Shown here piece after piece: positions 6,815 through 50,971 of a DNA stretch of 64,000 nucleotides. The notes beneath the pieces were generated by a model. It made no database searches. It was given only the letters and a program-made list of their open reading frames with translations, and was not told where the DNA came from. The stretch's first letter is position 1. Each line of letters opens with the position of its first letter. This DNA is from an uncultured Chromatiales bacterium (GTDB lineage: Bacteria > Pseudomonadota > Gammaproteobacteria > SZUA-140), in contig CAYLYS010000003.1 in assembly GCA_964388175.1 (NCBI GenBank), positions 6,870 through 70,869 on the forward strand, given 5' to 3'. A program made the translations under genes and the position numbers.

Positions 6815-7963
6815 ATGCGGATCGAAATGCACAGCCGGATCGACGCGTTCGATGCGGGCGAGTGGGACTGCCTCGTTCCCGAACAGCCTTTCCTGCGTCA
6901 CGCTTTTCTCGATGCGCTTGCCCGTCATGGTGCGATCGGCGGCTCCAGCGGTTGGCATCCGCGCTATCTCGCCGCGCGTGAAGCGGGTCGTCTGATCGGC
7001 GCCGTACCCCTGTTTCTCAAGGACCACTCCTTCGGCGAATTCATATTCGATTGGGCCTGGGCCGAGGCTTATCATCGCCATGACCTGGATTACTATCCCA
7101 AGCTGGTGGTGTCGGTGCCGTATACGCCGGTGAGCGGTGATCGCATCCTGCTGGCGCCCCAAGTCAATACGGGCACCGATGCCGAACGGGTGAGCGCGGC
7201 ACTGATCGATGCCGCCCTCGATCATGCGCGCGAAAGCGGCGCTTCTTCCCTGCACTGGCTGTTCACCAGCGAACGGGACGCCACGCGACTGCAGGCGCAC
7301 GGTTTCATGTCGCGCGCGTCGTGCCAGTTCCACTGGCTCAATCGCGGCTACGGCGATTTCGACGATTTTCTCGCCACGCTGTCTTCACGCCACCGCAAGA
7401 AGATTCGCGCCGAGCGCAGGGCGGTGCGTGAGCAGGGCATCGTCACGCAGGTGCTGAGCGGTGCGGAGGCGACGCCGGCGCTGTGGGATGTCTTTCATGA
7501 CTTCTATTTGTCGACCTTCATCCGCAAGGGCAATCATGCGCCGCTGACACGCGGTTTTTTTCGCGACATCGGCGCAGCACTGGGCGCAAATACGCTGCTG
7601 ATTCTGGCCCATCACGATGGCCGTCCGGTTGCCGGCGCATTCTTTTTCGCGAGCGAGGACACGCTGTACGGTCGCCACTGGGGCCGCAGCGAAGGTTTTC
7701 ACGGCCTGCATTTCGAGTTGTGTTATTACCGGGCGATCGAGTATTGCATCGAACGCGGCCTGCAGTGTTTCGAGGCGGGCGCGCAGGGCGAGTACAAGGT
7801 GCAGCGTGGCTTCGCGCCCACGGCCACGCGTTCTTCGCACTGGATCGCGGATGCCGGCTTTGCCAGCGCGATCGACGGTTTCCTCGCCCGCGAGCGCGAT
7901 GCCGTCGCCGCGTACATGCAGGAGATGTCGGCGTATCTGCCGTACCGGAGCGCGCATGGCTGA
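6815..7963 (+). CDS. GNAT-family N-acetyltransferase (DUF482/FemAB-like)
   Basis: 382-aa ORF with the family architecture commonly annotated as GNAT N-acetyltransferase/BioF2-like; stop overlaps aat start. Confidence 0.65.
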   Translation: MRIEMHSRIDAFDAGEWDCLVPEQPFLRHAFLDALARHGAIGGSSGWHPRYLAAREAGRLIGAVPLFLKDHSFGEFIFDWAWAEAYHRHDLDYYPKLVVSVPYTPVSGDRILLAPQVNTGTDAERVSAALIDAALDHARESGASSLHWLFTSERDATRLQAHGFMSRASCQFHWLNRGYGDFDDFLATLSSRHRKKIRAERRAVREQGIVTQVLSGAEATPALWDVFHDFYLSTFIRKGNHAPLTRGFFRDIGAALGANTLLILAHHDGRPVAGAFFFASEDTLYGRHWGRSEGFHGLHFELCYYRAIEYCIERGLQCFEAGAQGEYKVQRGFAPTATRSSHWIADAGFASAIDGFLARERDAVAAYMQEMSAYLPYRSAHG

Positions 7964-35747: not shown

Positions 35748-36560
35748 TTGATGTTCAGCGCGACCGGATCCGTTTCGATGCCGAATACCTTGATTGCCAG
35801 CGAATCCGGCTGCTTCTCACCGCAGAATGGCTTGGCTTTACCGCCTGCCCGGGTCCTGGTGGTGGATGATCATGAAGACATTCGCGAGCCGGTGACGATC
35901 TACCTGGGACGACAGGGTTTCGAAGCTGTACCGGCAGCCGGCGCCATGGAAATGCGGGCGGTGCTGCGCCAGCGGCCGGTCGACGTGATCGTGCTCGATA
36001 TCATGCTGACTGACGGCGATGGCCTCGAACTGTGCCGCGAGCTGACTGGTACCAGTGCGATGCCGGTCATCCTGCTGACCGCGATGGCAGGCTACCAGGA
36101 CCGCGTGATTGGTTTGGACGCCGGTGCCGACGACTACGTCGTCAAGCCCTTCGATCCGGCCGAACTGGCGGCGCGCATCCGCAGCGTACTTCGCCGTCTG
36201 GCGCGCGGCAGTGCGCTGCCGGTGCCCGCAGTGGTGCAGCGTTTTGAGTTCGAAGGCTGGGTGTTCGATGTGGCGGCGCGCGAGCTGACCGATCCGCACG
36301 GCCGGCGAGTAATCCTGAGCGAGACCGAATACCGTTTGCTGACAGTGTTCGCCGAATACCACGGTGAGGTGCTCAGCCGTGACCACCTGCTCGATCTGAC
36401 GCAGCCCAACGACCTGTCGGTGTTCGACCGCAGCATCGATACCCAGGTCTGCCGCCTGCGCAAGAAGCTCGAGCCGGAACCACAGATGCCTCGACTGATA
36501 AAGACGGTGCGCGGCGGCGGCTACCTGTTTGCCGCGAACGTGCAGCCCTGGCCACCATGA
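35748..36560 (+). CDS. OmpR/PhoB-family response regulator (true start probably downstream of 35748)
   Basis: Receiver domain (RVLVVDDHEDIRE...VIVLDIMLTDGDGLEL...ILLTAM) and winged-helix output (SRDHLLD...VCRLRKKLE...IKTVRGGGY). Confidence 0.85.
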   Translation: MMFSATGSVSMPNTLIASESGCFSPQNGLALPPARVLVVDDHEDIREPVTIYLGRQGFEAVPAAGAMEMRAVLRQRPVDVIVLDIMLTDGDGLELCRELTGTSAMPVILLTAMAGYQDRVIGLDAGADDYVVKPFDPAELAARIRSVLRRLARGSALPVPAVVQRFEFEGWVFDVAARELTDPHGRRVILSETEYRLLTVFAEYHGEVLSRDHLLDLTQPNDLSVFDRSIDTQVCRLRKKLEPEPQMPRLIKTVRGGGYLFAANVQPWPP

Positions 36561-37888
36561 GGTTCTGGCCGCGCAGCATGGCGGGCCAGCTTGCCATGCT
36601 GCTGTCGGCCGGTTTGCTGGCAAGCCACTTGGTCACCGTGCTCGTGCTGCGCGGTTACAGCGATGCGCTGAACCCGGTTTCGCGGGACCATGTCCTCGAG
36701 CACATGGCGAGCGCCTACCACATCGCGCAGACAGCGTCCGAAGCTGAGCTGGCGCAGTTGCTGCAGGCGATGAGCTCACGGGAAACGCAGTTCCGCATCA
36801 CCTCGGAGCCGTCGCCGCCGACCCTCGAGTCCGAAAGATTGCCGCTCCTGTATAACCGGCTTGCAGCCAAATTGCCCGAGGCCCCGCAACTGCGCGTGCG
36901 GGTGGCGCGGCCTGCTGTGGCGGAGAGCACCGGCAGTGTGCTGGATCTGCCGGTCGTGTGGGTGCATATGGCGGCGCGTCTCCCCGACGGCCGCTGGCTG
37001 CACAGCGTGCAGCAGTCGCGGGCCAATCAGCACTGGTGGTGGTGGCTGGGCCTGTGGCTGCCGGTGAGCGCATTGCCGGTGCTGGTACTGGTGATTGCGT
37101 TTCTCTACCGCACGCTGCGTCCGATCAAGGCACTCGCGCGTGCGGCCGAGCGCGTCAGTCGCGGCGAACGGGTCGCGCCGCTGCCGGTCGTCGGTCCGGG
37201 CGAGGTGCGTGAAGTCTCGGCCGCGTTCAACACGATGCAGGACAAGCTTACCCGCTTCATCGATGATCGCACGCAGTTGCTCGCCGCGGTGAGCCACGAC
37301 GTGCGTACGCCGATCGCTTCGCTGCGCGTGCGCGCCGAACTGGTGGACGATCCAGCGCTGCGCGCCGCGATGACGCGCACGCTCGACGACATGAGCGCGA
37401 TGGCCGAGCAGACGCTGCACTTCGCTCGCGACGATGCCGCCGGCGAACCGATGCATGAGATCGATCTGCGGACGCTGCTCGACGACGTGGTGCACGATGC
37501 GCGCGCCGTGGACCATGAGGTCGAGATCGAAGTCGAGTCCGGACCGCCGCAACCATACCGTGCGCGGCCCAGCAGTCTGCGGCGCGCGCTCGCCAATCTG
37601 GTCGACAATGCGATGCGTCACGGCGGTGGACGAGTGTGGGTGCGCTTGACCGAGGCGCCGCTGCGCATCGAGGTCGATGATGCCGGACCCGGACTGACGC
37701 CGGATCTGCTCGAACGCGTGTTCGAGCCTTTCTTCCAGGTGGATCCGGCGCGCAACCACAATCGGAAGGGCGTCGGCGTCGGACTGGGGCTGGCGATCGC
37801 GCGTTCCTGCGCCCGCGCGCACGGCGGTGACGTGACGCTGGCCAATCGACCCGAAGGCGGCTTACGCGCGACGCTCTTTCTGCCGTGA
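36557..37888 (+). CDS. Sensor histidine kinase (2 TM, HAMP, HisKA, HATPase_c), partner of the upstream regulator
   Basis: H-box LLAAVSHDVRTPIASL, N/G boxes (LANLVDNAMRHGG; GVGVGLGLAIARS); ATGA overlap with the regulator stop. Confidence 0.85.
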   Translation: MRFWPRSMAGQLAMLLSAGLLASHLVTVLVLRGYSDALNPVSRDHVLEHMASAYHIAQTASEAELAQLLQAMSSRETQFRITSEPSPPTLESERLPLLYNRLAAKLPEAPQLRVRVARPAVAESTGSVLDLPVVWVHMAARLPDGRWLHSVQQSRANQHWWWWLGLWLPVSALPVLVLVIAFLYRTLRPIKALARAAERVSRGERVAPLPVVGPGEVREVSAAFNTMQDKLTRFIDDRTQLLAAVSHDVRTPIASLRVRAELVDDPALRAAMTRTLDDMSAMAEQTLHFARDDAAGEPMHEIDLRTLLDDVVHDARAVDHEVEIEVESGPPQPYRARPSSLRRALANLVDNAMRHGGGRVWVRLTEAPLRIEVDDAGPGLTPDLLERVFEPFFQVDPARNHNRKGVGVGLGLAIARSCARAHGGDVTLANRPEGGLRATLFLP

Positions 37889-37961
37889 GCCGCCACGCGG
37901 CCGTCGCCGTGTCGGCCTCTGCCGACGGGCAATCGGCGTTTGCGCGAGCGCGAGTATCACT

Positions 37962-38546
37962 TCAGCGCGGTGTGCGGACTGACGCGCGATGGCCGTTGAC
38001 GCCTGGCTTTGACAGGGCCGGCGCCTCGGCTTCCTGTGCGTCGGGCGTCCGGCGACTTTTCTGCCGGCACTTGTGGCAATCGTCCGTTTCGATGGTCAGA
38101 CAGCGCTGCGGCTCGTCCGGATGGGCGCAGCCGGTGAACCGGCGTATTTGTTCCAACAGTGCTGCATCCTGAAAGGCGGTGCCGTGTCCGCAGCGACGGC
38201 AGAGCAGGCGGTGTGCGGGCGTGCTCTGCTGGCCCGAGCGCGCGTAGAGAATCGAGTACACGGTCTTGACGCCGGTAAGGCCGGGTATCCATTCGCGCAC
38301 GAGCAGGCCTGCCGATTCGAAATCACCCAGCACACGGTAGATGGTCGCTATGCTGAGGCTCGTGCCACCGGCAAGCAGATTCATGAACACATCACTGGCC
38401 GAGACGGGGCCGGACATGGCTTCGACTGTCCGCAGAATGCTGACCCGCGTTGCCGTCGGGCGCAGCCGGACGTCGCGCAGCCGTTCGGCCGGGTTGAGAA
38501 GCGCTTCGCGAGGGCGCAGTGACAACGCGGCGTGAGGTGACTTCAT
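37962..38546 (-). CDS. Fur-family metalloregulator (Fur/Zur-like) with ~30-aa C-terminal extension
   Basis: Start at MKSPHAALSLRP after AAGGAGA SD; wHTH (ATIYRVLGDFESAGLL), HRLLCRRCG and CHKC metal-site motifs. Confidence 0.72.
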   Translation of the reverse strand: MKSPHAALSLRPREALLNPAERLRDVRLRPTATRVSILRTVEAMSGPVSASDVFMNLLAGGTSLSIATIYRVLGDFESAGLLVREWIPGLTGVKTVYSILYARSGQQSTPAHRLLCRRCGHGTAFQDAALLEQIRRFTGCAHPDEPQRCLTIETDDCHKCRQKSRRTPDAQEAEAPALSKPGVNGHRASVRTPR

Positions 38547-38622
38547 GTCGGATTCTCCTTGCGTTTTACTGCGGTGCCCGTATCGAAGCCCGGTGCTGTC
38601 GGGTGAGGAGAGTCTGCGCCGG

Positions 38623-38970
38623 TCAGGCAGTGAGGTACACGGAGCATAGCAGTGATAAGACGAAGCTGACCGCCGCCACGGTGAGCGCAATCCGCTCCTG
38701 ATAGGAAATCAGCAGGATCCACAGGCCGGTGACCGCCGTCAGCACGCCGAACCAGGCGACGGGTCCGAGCGCCGCTCCCCAGGCCATGATGCTGTATACG
38801 AGCGCCAGCGCCAGCAGCAGCCATCCCGAGCCGCGCAGCAGCCACTGCGGCAGGACGCCCGGCGCGCGCTGCAACAGTTGCCGGTAGTGGCGTTCCATGG
38901 ACAGACACAGTGCCGCCATGCCGGCATGGAGCGCGCTGATGATTGCGACGACCAGCACCAGTTTGCTCAT
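38623..38970 (-). CDS. Small 3-4 TM membrane protein, DUF3325-like partner of PepSY membrane proteins
   Basis: 115-aa hydrophobic ORF overlapping the stop of the upstream PepSY-TM gene by 4 nt; family assignment from memory of the typical receptor-PepSY-DUF3325-DUF3649 operon. Confidence 0.45.
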   Translation of the reverse strand: MSKLVLVVAIISALHAGMAALCLSMERHYRQLLQRAPGVLPQWLLRGSGWLLLALALVYSIMAWGAALGPVAWFGVLTAVTGLWILLISYQERIALTVAAVSFVLSLLCSVYLTA

Positions 38971-40994
38971 GCATGCCCCTTCGCGAGATCATCGGCTCCG
39001 ATCCGCGCACCGATGGAGATCTCAGCGATCTCGGCGGTATTGCCGGTGTCGGCGCCCGGGGATTGCGCCGGTTTGCGCTGTGCCGCAACCATTCTGATGT
39101 GGACCTTCCATGCTGCCCAGGCGAACATCAGTCCCAGGGCGATGAAGACCGCCTCGATGCTGACCAGGATCCAGTCGCCGCTGGACAGGGTGGTCAGAAG
39201 ATGACGGTCGGTGGTGATGAAGTTCAATACCGGCAGCAGCAGATAGGCGGCCGCGGCGAGGAACAGCACTTCGCGCCATGTCTGCATGACCGGTCTGAAC
39301 AGGGCATAGATGAGCATCAGCAGCCAGGCAATGAACAGGCTGTTTATTTCCCAGGCTGCGCGGTCTTCCAGATCCACCGGCAGCAAACGGTTCGACCAGA
39401 AATAGACGGCAAGGGCAAAAGGGAGGCCCGCCACGGCGACCACGTTGAGTCTTTCGACCAGCATGTGCCCGAAGTGCCACGTCCCCCTGGCGTGCTTGGG
39501 GCGGCGCTTCACCGTCCACAGGACGAGACCGGTGGCGATCATCGCCGATCCCAGGATGCCGGACACGAAGTACAGCCAGCGGGTGAGGGGCCTGGCGAAC
39601 TGTCCTTCGTGCAGCCCGAGCATGGAGCGGCCGAATACGTCGGTCGCCGGCGTGTCCTGATTCGAAGAGATCATGCGTTCGCCGGTAACGGCATTGTATT
39701 GAGCGTTGGTTCCGCGTCCGCGGATCGTATCGATATTCGCACGCGCCAGTTGCAGCCTGGCCGGGGCCGAATCGCTCGCGGCCGTGATCGTGACGGCGCG
39801 GATTTCCTGATGGCCCCATTCGCTCTCCACCTGACGCACGATGGAGGAGAGATCGGCGAACGAGGCGGCCTGCCGATGCACCGGGTTTATTGCCGCGGGC
39901 TCCTGATTTCCCGCCTGGCCTCTTCCCTGATTTGCGCCGCCCGCGTTATTGCCGCGGCCGGCTCTTTCAGCAGGCTGATCTGCCGAACGCTCGCCGCCGG
40001 CGCTGCGCTCATTGCGGCCGGTCTGATTCCGTTCGCCCGCGCCGGATCTTTCCATGCCCATTCCTTCACGACCCGCGCCTTCACGGCCAGTTCCTTCTCG
40101 ACCCATTCCTCCGCGTGCCGGCGGATCGGCGACACTTTCATCGCCGGTTGCATCTGCATTCGCAGACGCGTTGTTCCCGCCGCGCCCACCACCGCCGCCA
40201 CCACCGACGGTACGGCCGACGAGCCGGGTGCTGCCGATCTGGGAACTCAATTCCGCGTAGTATGTCCGCTGGTCTTCGGCATCGAATCCGTAGGTCAGCG
40301 GCACGCCGAGCGGCATATAGGCGTACATGAAGAACAGCAGACCGCTGTAAGTGATCATCAGATAGAAGGGTAGTGCGAGCACGCCGAGCACGTTGTGCGC
40401 ATCGAGCCAGGAGCGCCGTCCTTTCGCCGCCCTGAAGGTGAAAAAATCCTTGAAGATCTTCTTGTGCGTGATGACGCCGGTGACGATGGCGATCAGCATG
40501 AGCATGGTGCAAATGCCGACGATGCGAATTGCCCAGTCGAAGGGAATGTAGTGGAGGGCATAGTGCATCCGTACCAGGGCACGGCCGCCGGCCGTCGCGC
40601 GCGGCTCTGCGCCCGGTTCCACCACCTCGCCCGTGGCGGTATCCAGAATGACGCCTTCCGTTCTGCCGCGATTCTGGCCCGGTTCAGGCGCCAGACTCCA
40701 ATTGGCCGTCAATTGATTGCCGCTGCGGCCGGTGTTGATGAGGTTGACGGTCCAGCTCGATGACTGCTGGCTTGCCGGATTGGCGAGCAGATGCCGGTAC
40801 GCGATGTCGAACTGATCGGCGTTGCTCATCGCATTGCTGGCGCGCATCGGCTGCTCCGGCTGCATCCAGCGCGTGATCTCGCGATTGGCGTAGCTGGCCG
40901 TCCCGGTCACGAAGACGAACAGCAGTATCCAGCCGACGACCAGTCCGGTCCAGGTATGCAGCCACGCCATGCACTGGCGGAAACCTTCCTTCAT
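38967..40994 (-). CDS. PepSY-associated TM (PiuB-like) membrane protein with a Gly/Arg/Glu-rich low-complexity insertion
   Basis: Start MKEGFRQCMAWLHTWTGLVVGWILLF after GAGG SD (track ORF extends to 41099 but overlaps the upstream gene); TM helices with conserved His; internal tandem-repeat region 39900-40200. Confidence 0.7.
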   Translation of the reverse strand: MKEGFRQCMAWLHTWTGLVVGWILLFVFVTGTASYANREITRWMQPEQPMRASNAMSNADQFDIAYRHLLANPASQQSSSWTVNLINTGRSGNQLTANWSLAPEPGQNRGRTEGVILDTATGEVVEPGAEPRATAGGRALVRMHYALHYIPFDWAIRIVGICTMLMLIAIVTGVITHKKIFKDFFTFRAAKGRRSWLDAHNVLGVLALPFYLMITYSGLLFFMYAYMPLGVPLTYGFDAEDQRTYYAELSSQIGSTRLVGRTVGGGGGGGRGGNNASANADATGDESVADPPARGGMGREGTGREGAGREGMGMERSGAGERNQTGRNERSAGGERSADQPAERAGRGNNAGGANQGRGQAGNQEPAAINPVHRQAASFADLSSIVRQVESEWGHQEIRAVTITAASDSAPARLQLARANIDTIRGRGTNAQYNAVTGERMISSNQDTPATDVFGRSMLGLHEGQFARPLTRWLYFVSGILGSAMIATGLVLWTVKRRPKHARGTWHFGHMLVERLNVVAVAGLPFALAVYFWSNRLLPVDLEDRAAWEINSLFIAWLLMLIYALFRPVMQTWREVLFLAAAAYLLLPVLNFITTDRHLLTTLSSGDWILVSIEAVFIALGLMFAWAAWKVHIRMVAAQRKPAQSPGADTGNTAEIAEISIGARIGADDLAKGHA

Positions 40995-41002
40995 GACGAC
41001 CT

Positions 41003-41347
41003 CTATGGTTTGAGCAACAGCGCCAGCAGTGCCAGCGCGATGACGGTTGCAGCGGTTCCGACCCAGGCGCGGGTAGCGCTCGCCGCGGTGAATACCCACA
41101 GCACCGCGATCAGCCAGACGGTGAAGCTGAACAGCATGGCGCCGTAGGTGGCCAGTTCATTGGGGCCGGGCAATATGCCGGTGATCACGGGCACGCTCAG
41201 GCCGGCGATCAGAAACCCGCCGACCGCGGCAGCCAGGACACGGGAAAAGACCGCCCAGCGATGGCGCGCGCCATCGGACAAAGTGCGGGATCCGGGTATT
41301 TTCATCAGCGCCGGCATACCAGGCGCGCCTGCGCGTTTACTGTTCAT
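41003..41347 (-). CDS. Small membrane protein (DUF3649-like, iron-uptake associated)
   Basis: 114 aa, 3 predicted TM; sits between the binding-protein and PepSY genes with overlapping stop/start. Confidence 0.45.
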   Translation of the reverse strand: MNSKRAGAPGMPALMKIPGSRTLSDGARHRWAVFSRVLAAAVGGFLIAGLSVPVITGILPGPNELATYGAMLFSFTVWLIAVLWVFTAASATRAWVGTAATVIALALLALLLKP

Positions 41348-42416
41348 GCTGATCGAATGCCGCCTGGATCTGCCGGATGCTCTGCTGCAGCAGACCCAGA
41401 CCGCCGGCCATCAGGTACCAGGGGCCGTTCTGATCCAGATAAATCACTCGTCCTTGCTGCCATGCCTTGCTGTTGGCGATGGCGGGCGTGGCGGCCATCG
41501 CTTCCGCCGCCTTGGCATCGCCGAAGGCGGCATTGCGGTCGACCACGAACAGCCAGTCGGGTTCGCGCGCCATCACGTCGGCCAGGTACTTCGCTTCGGC
41601 TTGCTGGCGTGCTTTCTGCGCCGCTTCGGCGGCGGCCTTGGCGGCGGGATCGTTCTCGTCCACAGTGACAGCAGCCGGTGGCCGGCCGCTGCTCAGGCCG
41701 CCGGCGCCATCGGTCGGCGTCAGAACGGGGCGGATGCCGACCACGTCGTAGATCAGGCCGAAGCGGGCGTCGAATTGCTGGGGCATGACGCGGTTGCCGA
41801 CGGCGAACAGCACCAGCCCCGTACCCTGTTTGGCGGCGCTCTCGCGCAGTGCGCGCATGCTGGCCAGCAGTTCGTAGGCTTTCTCGCCCGCCTGCTTTTC
41901 CTGTCCGAAGGCCGCACCCAAGGTCAGGATGTTCTGCACCACGCTGTCGACGAAGCTGGTGTTGCTGACCGACAGATCGATGGTGGGGGCGACCTCTTTC
42001 ATGGTCTTGAATGCATTTTGGTCGGTGACGACGACGAGATCGGGCCCGAACGCCTTGATCTGGGCGAGTTGGGAATTGCCTTCACTTTCCTGGGAGGAGC
42101 GGCCGCCGCCGCTGATCTTCACGTATTTGTCCTGGGCATATTGCTCGAGCAGATGTGCGGGCCAGCGCGTGGTCGAATCGCCGGCAGGCAGCGCGGGGAC
42201 GGCCGCCGCTTCGATGCCGAGGGCATCCAGCGTATCCAGGGCGGCCAGGCCGAGGACGGCGACCTTCCTGGGTGTGGCCGGGATTTCGGTGGTGCCCTGG
42301 GCATGCGTGACCTGGCGTGCTTCGGCCGCGTGCAGGGAGGGGAAGGCGATGCCGCCCAGCAAGGCGATGCCCGCGGTCAGGGCCGCAGCAAGCGCGGGAC
42401 GGGATGGAATAATCAT
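41337..42416 (-). CDS. Periplasmic substrate-binding protein (FecB/TroA-like, iron-siderophore type)
   Basis: True start MIIPSRPALAAALTAGIALLGGIAFPSLHA (signal peptide) preceded by AGGAG; the track ORF extends upstream into the methyltransferase gene. Confidence 0.72.
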   Translation of the reverse strand: MIIPSRPALAAALTAGIALLGGIAFPSLHAAEARQVTHAQGTTEIPATPRKVAVLGLAALDTLDALGIEAAAVPALPAGDSTTRWPAHLLEQYAQDKYVKISGGGRSSQESEGNSQLAQIKAFGPDLVVVTDQNAFKTMKEVAPTIDLSVSNTSFVDSVVQNILTLGAAFGQEKQAGEKAYELLASMRALRESAAKQGTGLVLFAVGNRVMPQQFDARFGLIYDVVGIRPVLTPTDGAGGLSSGRPPAAVTVDENDPAAKAAAEAAQKARQQAEAKYLADVMAREPDWLFVVDRNAAFGDAKAAEAMAATPAIANSKAWQQGRVIYLDQNGPWYLMAGGLGLLQQSIRQIQAAFDQHEQ

Positions 42417-42462
42417 GGGAATGCTCCTGGGAGACGAGGTTGGGAATCTGGTGGACACGGGA

Positions 42463-43902
42463 TCAGCGCAGGGCGGCCAGCCACTGCAGGCGGCGGACGT
42501 CGCCGGTTTTGCCGCGCGGCGCCGGTATGGCCGAGCCGATGGCGGCCGCGGCCAGAATGGATCCGTTGAAAGGCGGATCCTGGCGGGCCAGCGCCGCATT
42601 GAGGCGCTGCGCGATTTCGCGGGTTGCGGCCGCGGCAGCGTCGTCTGGCACGTGATCGGGGCGCAGGAACTGCAGCCATCCTGCCCAGGCCAGCATCTGC
42701 AGCGCCTGGCCGACGAATGCCGGCTGCTCCGCGTAAACGGGCAGGGCGGCCAGCTCGGCATGGCTGCGTGGGCCATCCTGCAATGCCGCGAGCAAGGGGG
42801 CGACGTCGGCCATCGGCAGCTTCACCGGGCCGATACGCGATTCGAGCGTCAGCGTGCCGCCGGTTGATACGCTGGTCGATACGCTGGTCGATACCGGGGC
42901 TGCGGGCGCGGCGGGCAGCAGGCAGACGCGCTGTGCCCGCTGCGCTGCGTGGTGTGCGTCGTCCGGCAGCAGATTGCCGTCGGGATGGCGGCGCTGATAG
43001 AGATCGCAGCGCTGGGTCTGGTAGCGCGCGAGATCCTTGAAAGTCTCTACCGCCGCCGCGTCGGCGCCGCCGCGGCGCAGTTCTTCCAGCAGGGCCAGCA
43101 TGCCCGGAGGCAGTGACGCCGCATCGATATTTTCATGAGGTATGGCGCTGCCGGCGTATTCGCAGTCGGCGTTGGCGAAGTCCGCCATCACGTCGGCGAC
43201 GTGCAGCACATCCCAGTGTTCGTTGAGGTACTCATGGGCGAGGAAAGCGGCGTTGACCTCGTCCAGGGCGCGATCGTCCTGCAGCGTGCGCGGATGCTCC
43301 TGGAAGTAGCCGGCGCCGGCGTCCGCCATGCGCTGCAGCAGGGACAGGCCGGAGCGGACCCTGTCAGTGCTGGACCCCGGCAGGTTTTGCGTGGCCATGC
43401 GCATCAGGCTGCGCGCGGCGGCGAACGAGGCCGAGCCGGGATGACTGAGATAGGAAACGTAAAGCACACCGCCGGGTTTGAGCTTGCGCGCGGCAATGCC
43501 TTGTATGGCCGCTCTGGCAGCGGTGTCGATCCATGAATAGACGCCGTGCATCACGAGGAAGTCACAGCGGGGAATCCGTTCGTCCGCAGCCGCAATCACC
43601 TGGTCGAAGTCCAGGCAGTGGAAGCCGGCATTGCAGATGCCGGTCGATTCGGCCAGCGCATTTGCCTGCTCGATGGCGGCGGCATTGATGTCGATGCCGA
43701 TGAAGCGGCCGAGCGGATTGGTGGCGGCGGCCACCAGGGTACCCAGACCCGAACCGCATCCCAGCTCAAGCCAGGTATACGGTCGGGTCGGGTCAGGTAT
43801 GCGACGGCCAAGGGCTGTGAGGACCGACGCCATCCACACCGGCATGGTTTCACGGTGAAAATGCCGGGGATAGGCAACGTCGGTGATATAGCCCTTGTGC
43901 AT
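42463..43902 (-). CDS. Class I SAM-dependent methyltransferase with C-terminal methyltransferase-regulatory domain
   Basis: SAM motif I LELGCGSGLGTLVAAA, motif post-I IGIDIN, motif II VLYVSY; 479 aa. Confidence 0.7.
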   Translation of the reverse strand: MHKGYITDVAYPRHFHRETMPVWMASVLTALGRRIPDPTRPYTWLELGCGSGLGTLVAAATNPLGRFIGIDINAAAIEQANALAESTGICNAGFHCLDFDQVIAAADERIPRCDFLVMHGVYSWIDTAARAAIQGIAARKLKPGGVLYVSYLSHPGSASFAAARSLMRMATQNLPGSSTDRVRSGLSLLQRMADAGAGYFQEHPRTLQDDRALDEVNAAFLAHEYLNEHWDVLHVADVMADFANADCEYAGSAIPHENIDAASLPPGMLALLEELRRGGADAAAVETFKDLARYQTQRCDLYQRRHPDGNLLPDDAHHAAQRAQRVCLLPAAPAAPVSTSVSTSVSTGGTLTLESRIGPVKLPMADVAPLLAALQDGPRSHAELAALPVYAEQPAFVGQALQMLAWAGWLQFLRPDHVPDDAAAAATREIAQRLNAALARQDPPFNGSILAAAAIGSAIPAPRGKTGDVRRLQWLAALR

Positions 43903-43911
43903 ATGCTGCCG

Positions 43912-46245
43912 TCAGAACGAGGCCGTGTAGGTGACGTAGTAGGCGCGCCCCGGTTCGTTATAGGTCAGCGCGCCGGCGCCCGTGGTGATCACCCGGTCTT
44001 CCAGCGGTCCGGCGGCGACGTTTGCCGATGCCAGGCGCGCGGCGCGCTTGATCTCACGGTCGAACAGGTTGCTGACGCCGAAGCCGACACGATGGTGACG
44101 GTTGAATTCCCAGGTGCCGTTGAGCCCGACCAGTACGTAGGAAGGACGCTCGCGCACCGCAAGTCCGGTCATGGGATAACCGTGGTAGCTCACCGTGCGC
44201 GGCGTGCGGCGGCCGTAGAGCGTGCTCGTCAGCTGCATCGAAAAGCTTTCCGTGGTGCGCCAGAACAGCGAGCTGTTGAGTGTGTATTTCGGGATGATGG
44301 ACAGTGGCTGGCCGGTTTCCGTGCTGTGGTTCTTCAGCATCCAGGTGATGTTGTTGTAGAACTTCAGCCGGTTTCCGTTCGTGCCGAGCAGCGGCACGTT
44401 GAAGCTGCCCTCGAAGCCTTCGACCAAGGCCTTGCCGCCGTTCTTCCACTGGAAGTTGGCGGGACTGTCTATCACGCCGTCTTCCAGGTCTGCCAGGAGA
44501 TCCTGTATCGACACCGGGGAGTCCGCGACGATGCGGTTCTTGTAGTCGTTGCGGAAGTAAGCGAGGCTGCTGTCCCAGCCGTTCGGGCCGTTCCAGGCCA
44601 CACCGATTTCCTTGTTGACGCTGGTTTCCGCATCCAGGTCGGGGTTGCCGCTGACGCCGCAATCGTAATCGTCGCCGCTGATCAGGCCCAGATCGTTGCC
44701 GTTGTACGGGCAGGCGCCGCCGAGATTAGACAGGTAGCTCGGCGCGGTCTGGTAGAGCGTGGGTGCCTTGAACACGCGCGCGATACCGCCCTTGAGAGAA
44801 AAACCGCCGCCGAGCTCATAGAAGGCATTGAAGCTGGGTGACCAGTTGTTGCCGAACTGGCTGTGATGATCGAAGCGGATGCCCGGGATCAGCATCAGCG
44901 ACTGGCCGACGGCGATGCTGTCTTCCAGATAAAAGGCGATGGTGTCGTTTTTTATTTCGACGAAACCATCGCCGCCGGGTGTCGAACCGGCGCCACCGCC
45001 CGCATTCTGCAGCAGCGCATTGTTGTCGAGCAGTTTCGTGCTGCGGAACTCGATACCGGTGGTGAGGATCTGGTCGAGGCTGCCGAGGCTCAGCGGCGTG
45101 TTCAGCTCACCGTTGACGAAGTAGTTGTCCATGTCCGAGCGCTGCGTGTCGCCCTCGGTACCGCAGTTGGCCTCGCCCATGCCGCCCGCACCCTGGCGGC
45201 AGTTGATCGTGTCCGTGTTCTCGTACTGGAAGAGCAGGCGCGAACTGCCGAGGCTGTCCCACGTTCCGCGATGCGTCACAGCGGCATTGCGGCGATAGAC
45301 GCGGCGGGTCTCGGCGCCTCTGTCGGCCCATTCCTGCATCAGGGCGCTGGGGGTGGTATTGGCCGCTTCGCCTGCGTAGATGTTGCCCTGGCGGCTGAAG
45401 CCGGCCTCGAATTCCACGACCTGGTCGGGCGTCAGATCCCAGCGCAGCAGGCCGGTGGCGTCGCGGTTGCGGCGGCCTTCGCGGCCGGCGATCCAGTTGG
45501 GGTCGCCTTCGTCGGTGACGCCGTTGATGGTGGGCTCGTCACCGTCGGTCTTGGCCGCACTGCCGTACAGGCGGAACGACAGATCGCCGACAATCGGGCC
45601 GGCGAGATTGAAGCCCAGGCGGCGCGTGCCGTTTCCTTCCAGTTCGTCTTCCGGCTTGCTGGCATAGGCGGTGATGGAGCCGGAGAAGTCGCCGGTGGGC
45701 TTCTTGGTGATGATGTTGATCACACCACCTGAAGCGCCGGAGCCGTAGCGCGCGGCGGCCGGGCCGCGGATGATCTCGATGCGCTCGATCTGGTCGGCCG
45801 GCACCCAGTTGGTGTCGCCACCGGTGTCGCGGTCGCCGGTGCGGCGCGTGATGGCGCCCTGGCGCGACTGCACGGGTTTGCCGTCGATCAGGATCATGGT
45901 GTTTTCCGCACCCATGCCGCGGATGTCGATTTCGCGCTGATTGCCGTAGGCGCCGACCGAGCTGGCGCCGGAGAGGCTGATGCCGGGCTGGGTCATGAGG
46001 ATCTCGGACAGATCGTTGGCGGGCGGACGATACTTGAGATCCTCTGCCGTGATGATCGAAACGCCCAGCGACTGCTTGAGTTCCTCCTCGGCGGTGTTGA
46101 CCACGCGGAGTGTGGACAGGGTGACTTCGGGCGTTTCGTCCGCTATCGCGTCGATAGTTTGCGCGGCTACGGGCAGCATGGGGGTCAGTACCAGGCCGAG
46201 GGCGGCAGCCATCGGCTTCAGGCGGAAGACGTGTTGTTCTCGCAC
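43912..46245 (-). CDS. TonB-dependent siderophore receptor
   Basis: Signal peptide, TonB box ETPEVTLSTLRVV, plug domain (GGVINIITKKP), 22-strand barrel, terminal ...YVTYTASF; GTG start with GGAGAG SD. Confidence 0.9.
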   Translation of the reverse strand: MREQHVFRLKPMAAALGLVLTPMLPVAAQTIDAIADETPEVTLSTLRVVNTAEEELKQSLGVSIITAEDLKYRPPANDLSEILMTQPGISLSGASSVGAYGNQREIDIRGMGAENTMILIDGKPVQSRQGAITRRTGDRDTGGDTNWVPADQIERIEIIRGPAAARYGSGASGGVINIITKKPTGDFSGSITAYASKPEDELEGNGTRRLGFNLAGPIVGDLSFRLYGSAAKTDGDEPTINGVTDEGDPNWIAGREGRRNRDATGLLRWDLTPDQVVEFEAGFSRQGNIYAGEAANTTPSALMQEWADRGAETRRVYRRNAAVTHRGTWDSLGSSRLLFQYENTDTINCRQGAGGMGEANCGTEGDTQRSDMDNYFVNGELNTPLSLGSLDQILTTGIEFRSTKLLDNNALLQNAGGGAGSTPGGDGFVEIKNDTIAFYLEDSIAVGQSLMLIPGIRFDHHSQFGNNWSPSFNAFYELGGGFSLKGGIARVFKAPTLYQTAPSYLSNLGGACPYNGNDLGLISGDDYDCGVSGNPDLDAETSVNKEIGVAWNGPNGWDSSLAYFRNDYKNRIVADSPVSIQDLLADLEDGVIDSPANFQWKNGGKALVEGFEGSFNVPLLGTNGNRLKFYNNITWMLKNHSTETGQPLSIIPKYTLNSSLFWRTTESFSMQLTSTLYGRRTPRTVSYHGYPMTGLAVRERPSYVLVGLNGTWEFNRHHRVGFGVSNLFDREIKRAARLASANVAAGPLEDRVITTGAGALTYNEPGRAYYVTYTASF

Positions 46246-46634
46246 AGAAATACTCTCCAGTAAGATTTTTAATAGTAGGTATGCGTTCGGGGCGCTCGCC
46301 GTGCATGAGGCCGGCGAGCAACACTCGACAAGGGCCCTCAGCGCGGGAGGCCTTCACCCGACTTCACGGAGTCGATGCTGTTGCGAATCATACCCATTCA
46401 CATTCGCCGGAATATTTCAGCCTGTTACAGGGCAAGGGCGGATGTCGTGGGATACGGTCGGTGGGCGGCTCTCTTGCTGGCGTTGAGGGGAGAGAGACGG
46501 GATGCTGGCGTTATGGCGCCGCGGTATCGGTGCTCTTCATATGATCTGCGCCGACATCTTGGGGATGCGTTCGCGGCTCAGGTAGGGGATCCCGGCGCAT
46601 CTTGTTGAAGTTTCTTTTCTGCATGAGAGACAAC

Positions 46635-46681
46635 TGTTGCATGACACTGCAACATTGCTCTGCCCTGGCAAAGCCAATGCT
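46635..46681 (+). promoter_or_regulatory. Dyad TGTTGCA-N6-TGCAACA immediately upstream of a sigma54-like -24/-12 element (TGGCA-N6-ATGCT) in the receptor/kinase divergent intergenic region
   Basis: Perfect 7-bp inverted repeat at 46635-46654; GG/GC spacing at 46667-46680 equals that of the sigma54 consensus TGGCAC-N5-TTGCA. Confidence 0.3.
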
Positions 46682-46933
46682 AAGCAGCAGTGCTGCAAAG
46701 TGAAGCACGTGCTATCTTGATACGAGCAGTTTTTGCATTGATGGAATAGCTGTCGTAGCCGCACCGCTTTTTATATTCGATCGTTTTATCTCGCGCTCGA
46801 CCAGTACCCTGAAGGAGACGACTGAGCAATTGGTGTAAGTTCGGTTTTCGACGATAGCCATACTGGTTCTGGCCGTCAGCCAAAGCCAGTTGGTGGCGCA
46901 TCTCCTATATCTGCAGATGGTCGTGAATCGGAA

Positions 46934-49900
46934 ATGCCGGAAAATCCTCGCATGGGTATCGCTATAAACGAACCGACGCTCTATGTCGGAGTCGGTGCTT
47001 CGGCGGGTGGGCTGGATGCCTGCGGGGAGCTGCTGGCGGCTGTGCCGGCCGATACCGGCATGGCATTCATTCTCGTATTGCATCTGGACCCGACGCGTAC
47101 GAGCCATCTCGCGCAGATTCTGCAGCAACACGCCTCAAATCTGACGATCGTGCAGGCCGAGGGCACGACCCGGCTTGAGCGCGATCACGTCTATGTGATT
47201 GCACCGAACTCCAAGCTGCATCTCGTCGATGGCATGCTGGAGGTCGATCCGCTCGCCGAGGACGAGGCGCGCGGCCAACTCGTGGATTATCTGTTCTCGT
47301 CGCTCGCCGAAGCGCAACGCACGCGCGCGGTCGGCGTTGTCCTCTCGGGAGCGGGGCATGACGGCACCGAAGGGCTCGGACGGATCAAGGCGGCGGGCGG
47401 GTTGACCATTGCCCAGGCGCCGGTTACCGCCGGATCGACCGGCATGCCGTCGTCCGCGATCAATGCCGGCGTCGATGCGGTGCTCGCGCCGGATGCGATT
47501 CCGGCGGCTCTCATCGCGTTCGCCGAGCATGGCGTGCGGCCGTTGCCGCGGCACGCGGAGGATGGAAACGACGGGCCGGGCGGTGCACGCGATCAGATGA
47601 TCGGCTTTGCGAGCATTCTGCATCAGATCGGTACGATGGCGGATATCGATTTTGACGATTACAAGCCCGGTACGCTGCAGCGCCGGGCCCTGCGTCGCAT
47701 GAACCTTAAAGGTATCGAGACGTGGGATGACTATGCGCATTACCTGGGCGATAACCCCGACGAACTCGATGCGCTCTATCGTGATGTGATGATAGGCGTG
47801 ACCGAATTCTTCCGTGAGCCCGCGGTTTGGGAGCGGCTTGCGGCGGAACTGCCGGCCCTGCTGGAGAGCCGGGGTGAGCCAGGAGCGCGCGCCTGGGTGG
47901 CGGGCTGCGCCACCGGCGAAGAAGCCTACAGTCTGGCGATGATATTGTTCGAGCAGTTGCCGGAGAAAGATCGCGGAAAGATACAAATCTATGCGACGGA
48001 TATCAACGAACACGCCTTGGCCATCGCGCGTCGCGGCATTTATGCAGCCGAGGCGCTGCAAGGTGTTTCTCATGAGCGGCGCGAGCAGCATTTCAAGCAC
48101 CACGACGGGCAGTTCAAGGTTGGCGATTGCCTGCGCAGCTGCGTGTCCTTCGCGCCGCACAATGTGCTGAGCGATCCGCCGTTCTCCAGAATGGATATCG
48201 TGTCCTGCCGCAATCTGCTGATTTATCTGAAGCCACAGGCACATGACCGACTCCTGAAGAGCCTGCACTTCGCGCTCCGGCCAGGCGGCTTGCTCGTGCT
48301 CGGTCGCGCCGAGACGCTGGGTCGTCAAACCCGATTGTTCGATGAGATCTCCAAACCTCAGAACATCTTCCGATCGCGCGCGATCCCGCAGCACGAGCGC
48401 TTTCGCGTTGATCCGCGGACGAGGGAGCATAGCCACGGTATCAGGCAGGCGGTGCCGCTGCCGCTGGTAATCCCGGCCCACCTGCGCGAATCGGCACCGG
48501 ATCGCCGTATCGATCAGTTTGTGCTGCGCCAGCACACGCCGGCCTGTGTCGTGATCAATGCCGATTTCGAGATTCGGAGTTTCTACGGTCAGACCCAGCC
48601 TTATCTCGCGCCGCCGACCGGAGAATCGCACCAGGATCTGCTGGCCTGGATGCGGCCCGGATTCTACATACGATTGCGTTCCGCACTTAAGCAGGTGGCG
48701 GAAAGCGGTGAACCGCTGGTCGTGGAGGGGCAGATCGATCGTGACGGCGAGATCCGTCATGTGCAATGCGCGATCGAGCAGATCCCGCCGGTCGTCAACG
48801 CCGAAGGGATGCTGTTGGTGACCTTCCAGGACATCGGCGCCTCCACGCCCAGGAAAATCGATCCGGCAGCGGCGCATGAGCCGCTCGTGCATGAGCTCGA
48901 AATGGAGCTGATCGCAACGCGACGCGAACTGCAAAGCACGATCGAGCAACTCGACGTGGCAGGCGAGGGCTATCGCGCGAGCCACGAGGAATTGATGTCG
49001 CTCAACGAAGAGCTGCAATCGAGCAACGAGGAGCTCGAGGCCTCGAAGGAGGAGCTCGAAGCGCTCAACGAGGAAATGAATACGATCAACCGGGAGCTCG
49101 AGGAGAAGAACGGCGAGTTGCGGGTGGCGAACAATGATCTGAATACGCTGTTTCTCAGCACGGGGATTCCGACCGTGTTTCTTGACCGCGAGTTGAAGGT
49201 GAGGCGTTTCACGCCGACCGCGACGACAGTCATGCATCTGGTGCCATCCGACATCGCCCGCTCGATCGAGCATGTCAAGGAGCGTGTGGGCGATGGGCAT
49301 ACCGCCGACAAAAGCCGACAGGTGCTCAGAACGGCTGAACCGGATACCACCGAGGTTTGGAGTGAGGGTGGCGAGCGCTGTTATGTGCGCAGTATCCTGC
49401 CCTATCGTTCCGAGGAGGGGACGCTCGACGGCGTCTGCATCACTTTTTCCGATGTGACCGAACAAAAGACCGTGGCGCAGGCAAATGAAGCCGCGCTCGC
49501 CTATTCGGAGGCGATCATTGAGGTTGTTCGTACCCCCTTGCTGATTCTCGATCGGGAGCGGCGGATTTTGTCGGTCAACAGAGCGTTGCAGCTGGCCTAC
49601 GGTGTCGGCCCGGAACTGCTGGGCAGCTCGCTGACGCAGGCGCAGGATCAGCCCTGGAATGTATCGGCGATCGATGACGCGGTGGCGGCGGTGTCGTCGG
49701 GAGGCGGCGAGGTCAAGGATCTCGAGGTTGTGGTCCACGATAGAACGATCCTCGTCAATGTGCGTCTGGTGCATAGCAGGGCTGGCGAAGACCGGATTCT
49801 GCTGTCATTCGAGGATGCCACGCAGCAGCGCGAATTTCAGCGCCGCTCCGAACAGCGGGCGGCGGAGTTCAAGGGCGATGAGCGTCGCAAGGATGAATGG

Positions 49901-50971
49901 ATCGCGGTGCTTGGGCACGAGCTGCGCAATCCGATCGGTGCGATCAGCAATGGAATCGAGCTGCTGAAGTCGACATCACTTGCGCCCGATCAACAGACAC
50001 AGATCGTCGGTATGCTGGAGCGGCAGATCGGCTACATCGCCCGTCTGCTCGACGATCTGCTCGATATCGCGCGCGTCATCTCCGGCAAGCTCGATATCGC
50101 GCGCAAGCCCGTGGATTTGATCGAAGTGGCGCGGTGGGCGCTCGACGCCTCCATGTCGCAGTTCAGCGCCAAGACGCATGAGATCTCGTTTACCCTGCCG
50201 CCCGCCAGAACGGTCTGGGTGCGTGGAGATCAGCTCCGCTTGCACGAAATTCTCGTGAACCTGCTCGACAATGCCGCCAAATATACGCCCCGTGGCGGCT
50301 GCATTACGCTCGAGATCGTCGCGGATGCTGAACAGGCCACGATCAGCGTGCGTGACACCGGCATTGGTATCCCGCACGATCTCAAGGAGCATATTTTCGA
50401 GATTTTCACCCAGGGACCGCGCACGCTCGAGCGCCTGGATCGCGGCCTGGGTATCGGTTTGTCACTGGTGTACAGCTTGGTGAAGCTGCACGGGGGCGAG
50501 GTCGAGGTGTTCAGCGCCGGCGCAGGCCAGGGCAGCGAGTTCAGGGTCAGGCTGCCGCGTATCCAGCATGCCGGAGAGGCGGCGCAGCCGGCTGACCATG
50601 GGCAGGAGCCGCTGCCGACACAAAGGTATTCTCGCGTCCTGATTGTCGATGACGAGGGTGACGTGGCGGATTCGCTCCAGCAGCTGCTCAAAGCGCTCGG
50701 CCATGAGGTGCAAGTGGCCGCGAACGGGTCGGCGGCATTGGACAGGGTGCAGACCTTCAAGCCCGAGATCGCCTTGCTCGATCTTGGACTGCCCGGTATG
50801 GATGGCTACAAGCTGGCGCGTCGCTTGCGTGATGAACTGCCGGAGGTGGTGTTGATTGCGATAACGGGCTATCAGGCGGATAGCGACCGCCTCAAGGCCG
50901 CGGGGTTTGACCATCATATGATCAAGCCGATCAGTATCGAACGCCTGTCGCGTTTGTTGCATCTGAAGTGA
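46934..50971 (+). CDS. Giant hybrid signalling protein: CheB methylesterase + CheR methyltransferase + coiled-coil + PAS domains + HisKA/HATPase_c + C-terminal receiver
   Basis: 1345 aa: CheB-like N-terminus (GASAGGLDA...VLSGAGHDGTEGL), CheR (FFREPAVWERL...WVAGCATGEEAYSLAM), ELQSSNEELEASKEELEALNEE coiled coil, H-box VLGHELRNPIGAI, G-boxes, REC (RVLIVDDEGDVADSL...DLGLPGMDG). Confidence 0.85.
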   Translation: MPENPRMGIAINEPTLYVGVGASAGGLDACGELLAAVPADTGMAFILVLHLDPTRTSHLAQILQQHASNLTIVQAEGTTRLERDHVYVIAPNSKLHLVDGMLEVDPLAEDEARGQLVDYLFSSLAEAQRTRAVGVVLSGAGHDGTEGLGRIKAAGGLTIAQAPVTAGSTGMPSSAINAGVDAVLAPDAIPAALIAFAEHGVRPLPRHAEDGNDGPGGARDQMIGFASILHQIGTMADIDFDDYKPGTLQRRALRRMNLKGIETWDDYAHYLGDNPDELDALYRDVMIGVTEFFREPAVWERLAAELPALLESRGEPGARAWVAGCATGEEAYSLAMILFEQLPEKDRGKIQIYATDINEHALAIARRGIYAAEALQGVSHERREQHFKHHDGQFKVGDCLRSCVSFAPHNVLSDPPFSRMDIVSCRNLLIYLKPQAHDRLLKSLHFALRPGGLLVLGRAETLGRQTRLFDEISKPQNIFRSRAIPQHERFRVDPRTREHSHGIRQAVPLPLVIPAHLRESAPDRRIDQFVLRQHTPACVVINADFEIRSFYGQTQPYLAPPTGESHQDLLAWMRPGFYIRLRSALKQVAESGEPLVVEGQIDRDGEIRHVQCAIEQIPPVVNAEGMLLVTFQDIGASTPRKIDPAAAHEPLVHELEMELIATRRELQSTIEQLDVAGEGYRASHEELMSLNEELQSSNEELEASKEELEALNEEMNTINRELEEKNGELRVANNDLNTLFLSTGIPTVFLDRELKVRRFTPTATTVMHLVPSDIARSIEHVKERVGDGHTADKSRQVLRTAEPDTTEVWSEGGERCYVRSILPYRSEEGTLDGVCITFSDVTEQKTVAQANEAALAYSEAIIEVVRTPLLILDRERRILSVNRALQLAYGVGPELLGSSLTQAQDQPWNVSAIDDAVAAVSSGGGEVKDLEVVVHDRTILVNVRLVHSRAGEDRILLSFEDATQQREFQRRSEQRAAEFKGDERRKDEWIAVLGHELRNPIGAISNGIELLKSTSLAPDQQTQIVGMLERQIGYIARLLDDLLDIARVISGKLDIARKPVDLIEVARWALDASMSQFSAKTHEISFTLPPARTVWVRGDQLRLHEILVNLLDNAAKYTPRGGCITLEIVADAEQATISVRDTGIGIPHDLKEHIFEIFTQGPRTLERLDRGLGIGLSLVYSLVKLHGGEVEVFSAGAGQGSEFRVRLPRIQHAGEAAQPADHGQEPLPTQRYSRVLIVDDEGDVADSLQQLLKALGHEVQVAANGSAALDRVQTFKPEIALLDLGLPGMDGYKLARRLRDELPEVVLIAITGYQADSDRLKAAGFDHHMIKPISIERLSRLLHLK

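Follow-up and report, generated by a model that had tools for sequence, protein, structure and literature searches.

A predicted OM PKMT-family methyltransferase is encoded next to TonB-dependent catecholate-type receptors in alpha-, beta- and gammaproteobacteria

We analyzed a 64,000-nucleotide (nt) stretch of DNA from an uncultured Chromatiales bacterium (positions 6,870 to 70,869 of the forward strand of contig CAYLYS010000003.1, GenBank assembly GCA_964388175.1), here called the window, that carries a predicted siderophore-uptake cluster on its minus strand. Within this cluster, the gene for a FepA-family TonB-dependent receptor is directly followed by that for a class I methyltransferase dependent on S-adenosylmethionine (SAM). 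By sequence comparison, this pairing represents a known enzyme family, the OM PKMT family, in a new and strongly conserved genetic association with TonB-dependent receptors. The initial annotation of this DNA had regarded the methyltransferase as an unusual insertion among iron-uptake genes; instead, it was found to be a conserved partner of catecholate-type receptors, as observed in 73 of 80 loci. That annotation had also hinted at modification of the transported ligand or of a partner protein, and the second option fits the closest relatives of the enzyme, the Rickettsia protein lysine methyltransferases PKMT1 and PKMT2. Based on family membership and synteny, we propose, with a probability of roughly 0.4, that the methyltransferase may methylate the receptor or a different exported cluster protein. 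Our literature searches returned no paper tying an OM PKMT-type enzyme to TonB-dependent receptors or siderophore uptake. The two genes are as follows.

43912 to 46245, minus strand: predicted FepA-family TonB-dependent catecholate siderophore receptor, 777 residues (Pfam Plug and TonB_dep_Rec_b-barrel, NF010051)
42463 to 43902, minus strand: predicted OM PKMT-family methyltransferase, 479 residues (class I methyltransferase domain and PF10119)

A scan of one genome per species returned 513 relatives of the methyltransferase, and the best 80 of these were fetched with their flanking sequence (the 80 loci). A TonB-dependent receptor gene on the same strand was located directly upstream of the methyltransferase gene in the 73 paired loci, which span alpha-, beta- and gammaproteobacteria and more than 70 species. 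The gap between the two genes was below 300 nt in 52 loci and 0.3 to 1.6 kb in 21, including 15 with 1 to 1.6 kb; those long gaps that were inspected each contained a single additional gene (a PF00756 esterase in locus L030 and a beta-propeller-like protein in L022). Among the seven exceptions, four were contigs cut short upstream and one had the receptor gene on the opposite strand. The reverse order, methyltransferase before receptor, was not detected in any of the 80 loci. Adjacency was retained while methyltransferase identity dropped to 35%, and homologs at 33 to 38% identity were no longer receptor-linked. The linked receptors were of two kinds, a FepA type and a CirA/IrgA-like type that is about 27% identical to the window receptor.

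Counts of other components were taken over the 56 loci for which 18 kb or more of sequence was available. By this approach, the receptor was the only constant partner of the methyltransferase (55 of 56 loci), whereas each other component present was found in 5 to 30 loci. These components were two-component genes (about 30), the inner-membrane protein PepSY_TM (26), an esterase (25), a small open reading frame (22), a DUF3325 gene adjoining that of PepSY_TM (19), a beta-propeller protein (9) and a periplasmic binding protein (5); a Fur-like gene was present in none, and 10 loci had the receptor and methyltransferase alone. Genes for a FepB/D/G/C-like ATP-binding cassette (ABC) importer were positioned directly downstream of the methyltransferase gene in L029 and L049 and a few kb further in L024, L036 and L039. 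In L029 (11647-16497, Pseudomonas matsuisoli) and L049 (11429-15165, Phytopseudomonas punonensis), a full importer of this type replaces PepSY_TM after the receptor-methyltransferase pair, and the methyltransferase therefore occurs with both iron-release routes. Since the pairing persists with the PepSY_TM route, with the FepBDGC route and in loci with neither, the function of the methyltransferase appears to be tied to the receptor or its ligand class and not to the downstream route. Carriers include the tractable organisms Azotobacter vinelandii, A. chroococcum, Stutzerimonas stutzeri, Pseudomonas alcaligenes and Comamonas.

Other arrangements were noted among the relatives. A distant homolog (33% identity) is encoded inside a type VI secretion cluster, straight after an OmpA-family gene (L092, 5289-7536), and the sequences suggest that other clades of the methyltransferase family may be paired with other envelope proteins. 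A record labeled Pectobacterium actinidiae (L094) has the order regulator, kinase, receptor, binding protein and methyltransferase, the last 61% identical to that of the window, with a TctC/Bug-family gene adjoining; possible explanations are that the genes were acquired horizontally by an enterobacterium or that the assembly is contaminated. In Pseudomonas alcaligenes (L082, 13747-17783), the receptor, methyltransferase, PepSY_TM and DUF3325 genes are followed by a Sel1-repeat gene, a gene for a PKHD-type 2-oxoglutarate-Fe(II) oxygenase (PiuC-like) and a second TonB-dependent receptor gene. This oxygenase, too, comes from a superfamily of mostly protein-modifying enzymes and has a receptor gene as its neighbor.

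Assignment of the window enzyme to the OM PKMT family is based on sequence, profile and predicted fold. The methyltransferase matched PF10119 (MethyTransf_Reg) at 63 bits, as well as Methyltransf_31 and related models. When the single sequence was compared to the PDB by phmmer, Rickettsia PKMT1/PKMT2 were the only strong matches (5dnk, 1.7e-18; 5doo, 8.4e-17). A 27-sequence profile matched the same two proteins at 2.7e-43 and 1.5e-41 over positions 10-312, with generic methyltransferases next at E-values of at least 1e-12. An AlphaFold2 model was obtained with high confidence scores (pLDDT 90.5, pTM 0.90) and was compared to known structures by Foldseek. By this comparison, the model aligned with PKMT1/2 (5dnk, 5do0, 5doo and 5dpl) at template modeling (TM) scores of 0.60 to 0.67 over 435 to 513 aligned columns, such that the full-length predicted fold matches the four-domain OM PKMT architecture (SAM-binding, dimerization, middle and C-terminal domains). 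The next match was the Mycobacterium tuberculosis protein lysine methyltransferase Rv2067c, and small-molecule methyltransferases aligned on the Rossmann core only (TM about 0.3). In RpPKMT1, residues Asp102 and His146 form hydrogen bonds to SAM (PMC11784438); the equivalent D71 was invariant among the 27 homologs and H119 was conserved in 23. The OM PKMT family is named in that work, where KmtA of Acinetobacter is shown to methylate the adhesin AtaA and members elsewhere are considered to possibly methylate other outer-membrane proteins (PMC11784438). Like PKMT1/2 and KmtA of Acinetobacter sp. Tol 5 (PMC11784438, PMC8232902), the window enzyme is predicted to have a class I domain, a PF10119 region and SAM-contacting Asp and His residues, with a modeled fold as in PKMT1/2. 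The two systems differ in that the known targets of PKMT1/2 and KmtA are of autotransporter type (OmpB and AtaA), while the target proposed here is a lysine-poor TonB-dependent receptor. We found no statement that PKMT1/2 or KmtA adjoin the genes of their targets.

The window receptor scored above cut-off with both NF010051 (818 bits, cut-off 583) and NF010048 (809 bits, cut-off 493) and contains PF07715 and PF00593. Its GTG start codon and GGAGAG ribosome-binding site are both conserved among relatives. From FepA-family membership, the CeuE-like binding protein of the cluster and the esterase genes of related loci, we infer that the ligand is ferric enterobactin or another catecholate.

Several observations weigh against methylation of the receptor. 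The receptor has a low lysine content (20 Lys, 2.6%), in contrast to the heavily methylated AtaA. No linkage-specific lysine signature was detected when 50 methyltransferase-linked FepA-type receptors were compared to E. coli FepA and three unlinked paralogs: all lysine columns conserved in the linked receptors were Lys (or Lys/Arg) in these four proteins as well, and E. coli FepA has no such methyltransferase partner gene nearby. Considered by itself, this lysine comparison neither favors nor excludes receptor methylation. Identity of the enzyme to PKMT1/2 is just 17 to 19% by Foldseek structural alignment, with the C-terminal half alike in fold only. Furthermore, pairing with two catecholate receptor subfamilies (FepA-like and CirA/IrgA-like) would equally suit an enzyme acting on a catechol ligand.

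Methylation of a small molecule is a serious alternative to receptor methylation, possible in our view though on the whole doubtful. By this account, the enzyme would act on the imported catecholate or its breakdown products (e.g., by O-methylation of 2,3-dihydroxybenzoyl units), and thereby block re-chelation, detoxify catechols or mark spent ligand, with the rest of the cluster functioning as proposed below. The specificity of the pairing for catecholate-type receptors of two different subfamilies is consistent with such a role, as is the frequent presence next to the pair of genes for trilactone esterases of the Fes/PfeE family (PF00756; the 25 of 56 loci given above). The full FepBDGC importer of some loci would bring the ligand to the cytoplasm, where SAM is available, and the missing linkage-specific lysine signature also fits this explanation. 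By contrast, all close sequence relatives and full-length fold relatives of known function are protein lysine methyltransferases, and small-molecule methyltransferases match the core domain only. No N-terminal signal peptide was apparent in the methyltransferase by eye, as judged without a predictor, and in systems with PepSY_TM only or with the receptor only, the ligand would be expected to stay out of the cytoplasm. In addition, the strict order of receptor then methyltransferase, with short gaps, would not be needed for a ligand-modifying enzyme.

The enzyme could also be a protein methyltransferase with a target other than the adjacent receptor, such as another envelope protein, several outer-membrane proteins or a regulatory protein; we consider this unlikely. 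Rickettsia PKMT1/2 methylate lysines of several outer-membrane proteins besides OmpB (PMC11784438, citing earlier work), which is a precedent for a broader target range, and the homolog after the OmpA-family gene of the type VI secretion cluster places the family in varied envelope contexts. About half of the loci, moreover, have two-component genes together with the pair. What argues against a separate target is that the receptor is the sole partner in essentially all loci, whereas any one of the others (two-component genes, binding protein, PepSY_TM or esterase) can be missing. That the methyltransferase has no role in iron uptake and is carried with the receptor gene by chance or shared mobility is highly improbable: the cluster has apparently moved between distant lineages (e.g., the 61% identity in the Pectobacterium-labeled record), yet the adjacency is observed across alpha-, beta- and gammaproteobacteria, at identities down to 35%, for both receptor subfamilies and with differing genes in between.

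Methylation of the receptor, or of a different exported cluster protein, remains our preferred proposal. All seven open reading frames that had been described as one minus-strand block (37962-46245) were present as consecutive genes without internal stops, and domain searches supported every label but one. The exception was DUF3649, which had been assigned to the small open reading frame upstream of PepSY_TM; this frame had no Pfam match, DUF3649 included, even at E≤10. The remaining features of the system are listed here.

41337 to 42416, minus strand: predicted CeuE/YclQ/BauB-like periplasmic catecholate-siderophore binding protein, 359 residues, with Sec signal peptide (Peripla_BP_2, PDB matches)
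41003 to 41347, minus strand: small hydrophobic open reading frame before PepSY_TM, 114 residues (position conserved, no family match)
38967 to 40994, minus strand: PepSY_TM inner-membrane protein of the FoxB/FpvG/PiuB family, a putative di-heme ferric-siderophore reductase, 675 residues (PF03929)
38623 to 38970, minus strand: DUF3325 small membrane protein, 115 residues, with a 4-nt overlap with the PepSY_TM stop (PF11804)
37962 to 38546, minus strand: divergent Fur-family protein, 194 residues (PF01475)
35748 to 36560, plus strand: OmpR-family response regulator (Response_reg and Trans_reg_C)
36557 to 37888, plus strand: EnvZ-like sensor histidine kinase (HAMP, HisKA and HATPase_c)
46383 to 46407, no strand assigned: candidate operator palindrome GCGAAT-N13-ATTCGC (invariant block in relatives)

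The GC content at third codon positions was 0.74 to 0.84 for the seven minus-strand genes, based on the open reading frame listing and translation, and regional GC was about 65%. Junctions from the receptor to the Fur-like gene measured +9, +46, -11, +8, -4 and +76 nt. Starts and stops therefore overlap at only two of six junctions, whereas overlap throughout had been described, and the spacing still fits a single operon. A promoter scan of 37700-47000 returned no sigma-70-like match, and terminator-like matches numbered 9 compared to a mean of 6.2 after shuffling, with one on the minus strand within the small open reading frame (41232-41217). Rfam and tRNA scans detected nothing near the cluster. 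Since the genes are tightly packed, no sigma-70-like site was detected and terminator-like matches were at about the shuffled level, transcription as one minus-strand operon from 46245 down to approximately 37962 is plausible, if unproven. The proposal of an iron-uptake cluster is likewise supported and can be refined to catecholate siderophore uptake. The whole arrangement was retained in four contigs of close relatives (L086 to L089, methyltransferase 74 to 77% identical), where the kinase and regulator genes again face the other seven; the closest named relative by methyltransferase was Thauera sp. Sel9 (66% identity). A neighboring Porin_4 gene is of a family typical of Betaproteobacteria, and together with the Thauera match it would make a betaproteobacterial affinity of the window probable. 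Upstream of the receptor gene lies an unusually long intergenic region of 688 nt (46246-46933) with lower GC (about 0.56) and no Rfam match. Beyond it is a divergent plus-strand gene (46934-50971) for a 1345-residue hybrid of CheB, CheR, PAS, histidine kinase and receiver domains.

The binding protein matched PF01497 (Peripla_BP_2) at 50.5 bits, and its true start was placed at 42416, before a signal peptide that begins MIIPSRPALAA. Its best matches in the PDB were catecholate binders, namely 8bf6 and 8b7x (1e-34 to 1e-31, with 1.7e-34 for 8bf6), Campylobacter jejuni CeuE (about 1e-28), YclQ (3e-28), BauB (7e-21) and FatB. An insertion of about 45 residues rich in Ala, Lys, Gln and Glu (residues about 232-278; 41583-41723, minus strand) is located in a segment that does not align with CeuE-type structures, presumably near the position of the iron-coordinating histidine of CeuE, while the C-terminal WYL(A/M)xGG segment does align with them. 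The prediction of a binding protein without cognate ABC genes was borne out within the 64-kb window, where tblastn with E. coli FepC, FepD and FepG detected no permease or ATPase match at E≤1e-4. In this respect, and in its insertion, the window protein is unlike C. jejuni CeuE, which is associated with a permease/ATPase of the CeuBCD/FepDGC type. In one contig that was looked up separately, a binding-protein gene was found between the receptor and methyltransferase genes.

The PepSY_TM protein (true start 40994) matched PF03929 at 222 bits (cut-off 28.8), and residues H13, H144, H177, H200 and H462 were invariant in a five-sequence alignment. After a hydrophobic segment, the protein has a low-complexity insertion of about 120 residues rich in Gly, Arg and Glu (GGGGGGRGG...GREGTGREGAGREG...; 39840-40202, minus strand). 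L086 and L088 have this insertion with differing length and sequence, and the orthologs of Pseudomonas and Azorhizophilus lack it. The DUF3325 protein matched PF11804 at 85.5 bits (cut-off 26.8). The best Pfam hit of the small open reading frame preceding PepSY_TM (41003-41347) was to an unrelated family (E=0.033). A frame was found at the same position in L086 and L088, small frames are likewise placed in Pseudomonas and Azorhizophilus, and tblastn matches were detected in 24 of the 80 loci. FoxB and FpvG are described as di-heme membrane reductases that free iron from ferric siderophores in the periplasm (bioRxiv 10.1101/2021.01.28.428567). As in FoxB and FpvG (with FpvH/J/K; same preprint), the window protein combines PF03929 and invariant histidines with a siderophore receptor and small membrane proteins encoded alongside. 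It differs in its length of 675 residues, compared to about 380 for FoxB, in its insertion, and in its link to a receptor of predicted catecholate and not hydroxamate or pyoverdine type.

The two-component genes (35748-37888) were outside the coordinates of the initial annotation and, by comparative sequence analysis, belong to the uptake system, as orthologs flank the receptor-methyltransferase pair in relatives. Response-regulator orthologs (45 to 59% identity) were identified beside the pair in Thauera, Pseudothauera, Azoarcus, Xenophilus and Ideonella, and kinase orthologs (37 to 52% identity) adjoin it in Betaproteobacteria. In relatives from Pseudomonas, Azotobacter and Azorhizophilus, a pair of the PfeR/PfeS type takes the two-component position. 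The best NCBIfam match of the window kinase was EnvZ, below cut-off. From their distribution, these genes appear to be more widely conserved regulators than the Fur-like protein. A 9-mer search of the upstream regions of betaproteobacterial loci for a motif shared by targets of the two-component regulator returned GC-rich noise only. The kinase gene is convergent with the Fur-like gene across a 73-nt spacer (37889-37961) in which no terminator-like site was detected, the nearest plus-strand matches being inside both coding regions. In L088 (7523-7536), the 3' ends of the Fur-like and kinase genes overlap by 14 nt.

A Fur-family gene does end the block, as had been annotated. It appears to be a divergent paralog restricted to this lineage, with most of the canonical regulatory metal ligands replaced, and not simply the Fur regulator of the cluster. 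The protein matched PF01475 at 37.6 bits (cut-off 23.1) and the PDB Fur structure 1mzb at 5.8e-9, mostly over the DNA-binding domain. Its gene starts at an ATG at 38546 with an AAGGAG ribosome-binding site. Only seven homologs were detected among 5.8 billion proteins, the contigs examined for two of these (P0122 and P0124) carry the same cluster, and the gene was absent from all 80 other loci. Like canonical Fur of E. coli and P. aeruginosa, the protein keeps the winged-helix domain, an ATxYRVL recognition helix and two CxxC motifs (CRRC and CHKC), as in the structural zinc site of E. coli Fur. All six lineage members have the first motif and four of them have the second, the exceptions being P0124, with CCQC, and P0126, which lacks it. 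Unlike canonical Fur, the His/Glu metal-ligand columns are mostly Pro, Ser, Ala, Arg or Gln in the window lineage, with one His of the HHHDH cluster kept; the columns were assigned by what we take to be the regulatory metal-ligand positions of E. coli and P. aeruginosa Fur. The protein further differs from canonical Fur in an N-terminal extension of about 16 residues, in a variable tail and in being confined to a handful of close relatives. The C-terminal extension of about 30 residues that had been pointed out exists, but its length and sequence differ between the closest homologs.

A palindrome, GCGAATGTGAATGGGTATGATTCGC (minus strand), precedes the receptor start codon by about 140 nt. It occurs as a single copy in the window, is absent from the other loci, and forms an invariant block in three relatives (including L086 and L089) despite divergence of the surrounding intergenic DNA. 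Compared to the Fur-box consensus it matches at 12 of 19 positions and may be a diverged Fur-box-like site of the window lineage. Based on co-occurrence over few close relatives, which is a correlation, it is a candidate operator of the Fur-like paralog. No canonical Fur box with at most 3 mismatches was detected in the whole window. The Fur boxes suggested upstream of 46245 and 38546 were not found: the best site on the receptor side, with 7 mismatches, was the palindrome itself, and that on the side of the Fur-like gene had 10. In related loci, Fur boxes with at most 5 mismatches were found in 19 of 67 upstream regions of methyltransferase-linked receptors, compared to 1 of 330 control segments. 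Receptor-methyltransferase operons therefore appear to be Fur-controlled in general.

From these results we infer a route in which ligand class, periplasmic reduction, operator assignment and methyltransferase substrate are all provisional. The FepA-family receptor would import the ferric catecholate across the outer membrane, and the CeuE-like periplasmic protein would bind the complex and pass it to a PepSY_TM di-heme reductase of the FoxB/FpvG type, acting with the small open reading frame product and DUF3325 protein. Fe(III) would there be reduced and Fe(II) released in the periplasm. Expression may be governed by the adjacent OmpR/EnvZ-like two-component system and, in this lineage, also by the divergent Fur paralog, probably through binding of the palindrome at 46383-46407. 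The methyltransferase would act in the cytoplasm, ahead of export, by methylating lysines of the receptor encoded upstream or of a different exported cluster protein. Transfer from receptor to binding protein to a PepSY_TM complex would be the simplest model and would be analogous to the pyoverdine system, which has the binding proteins FpvC and FpvF and in which these and the FpvG reductase complex are the counterparts of the modeled route.

The PfeR/PfeS-PfeA-PfeE system of P. aeruginosa is a ferric-enterobactin system and provides a further comparison. As in that system and in the pfeR-pfeS-receptor loci of P. alcaligenes and Azorhizophilus, a two-component system adjoins a FepA-family receptor in the window. 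Periplasmic release of iron would be expected in both cases, and many relatives carry a PfeE-like esterase (PF00756). By contrast, the window is without an esterase, and its two-component system is OmpR/EnvZ-like and not of the PfeS type, as it lacks the HK_sensor domain. The window also adds the methyltransferase, the CeuE-like binding protein, the PepSY_TM/DUF3325 module and the Fur paralog.

TonB-dependent receptors are the entry gate for iron, bacteriocins, phages and siderophore-antibiotic conjugates. To our knowledge, the post-translational modification of these receptors is essentially unexplored. We tentatively suggest that there may be an OM PKMT clade dedicated to catecholate receptors, with each enzyme methylating the receptor encoded upstream, and that in the window lineage a Fur paralog with its own operator may have replaced canonical control. 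If this is true, a TonB-dependent transporter would for the first time be seen to have its own dedicated post-translational modification system, and the OM PKMT family, with OmpB and the trimeric autotransporter AtaA as its earlier targets, would gain a third target class. The modification could then tune catecholate binding or protect exposed lysines against proteases, phages, bacteriocins or reactive quinones, and the Fur paralog would no longer sense metal in the canonical manner. The cluster also provides a natural example in which a siderophore binding protein would operate with no ABC transporter encoded in the window, apparently in concert with a PepSY_TM reductase, and a Fur paralog that has lost the canonical metal site. 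Should the enzyme methylate the catechol ligand, it would represent a new step in siderophore recycling or detoxification; should it methylate the receptor, iron uptake would have a new layer of control and a poorly understood enzyme family would gain a new class of substrate.

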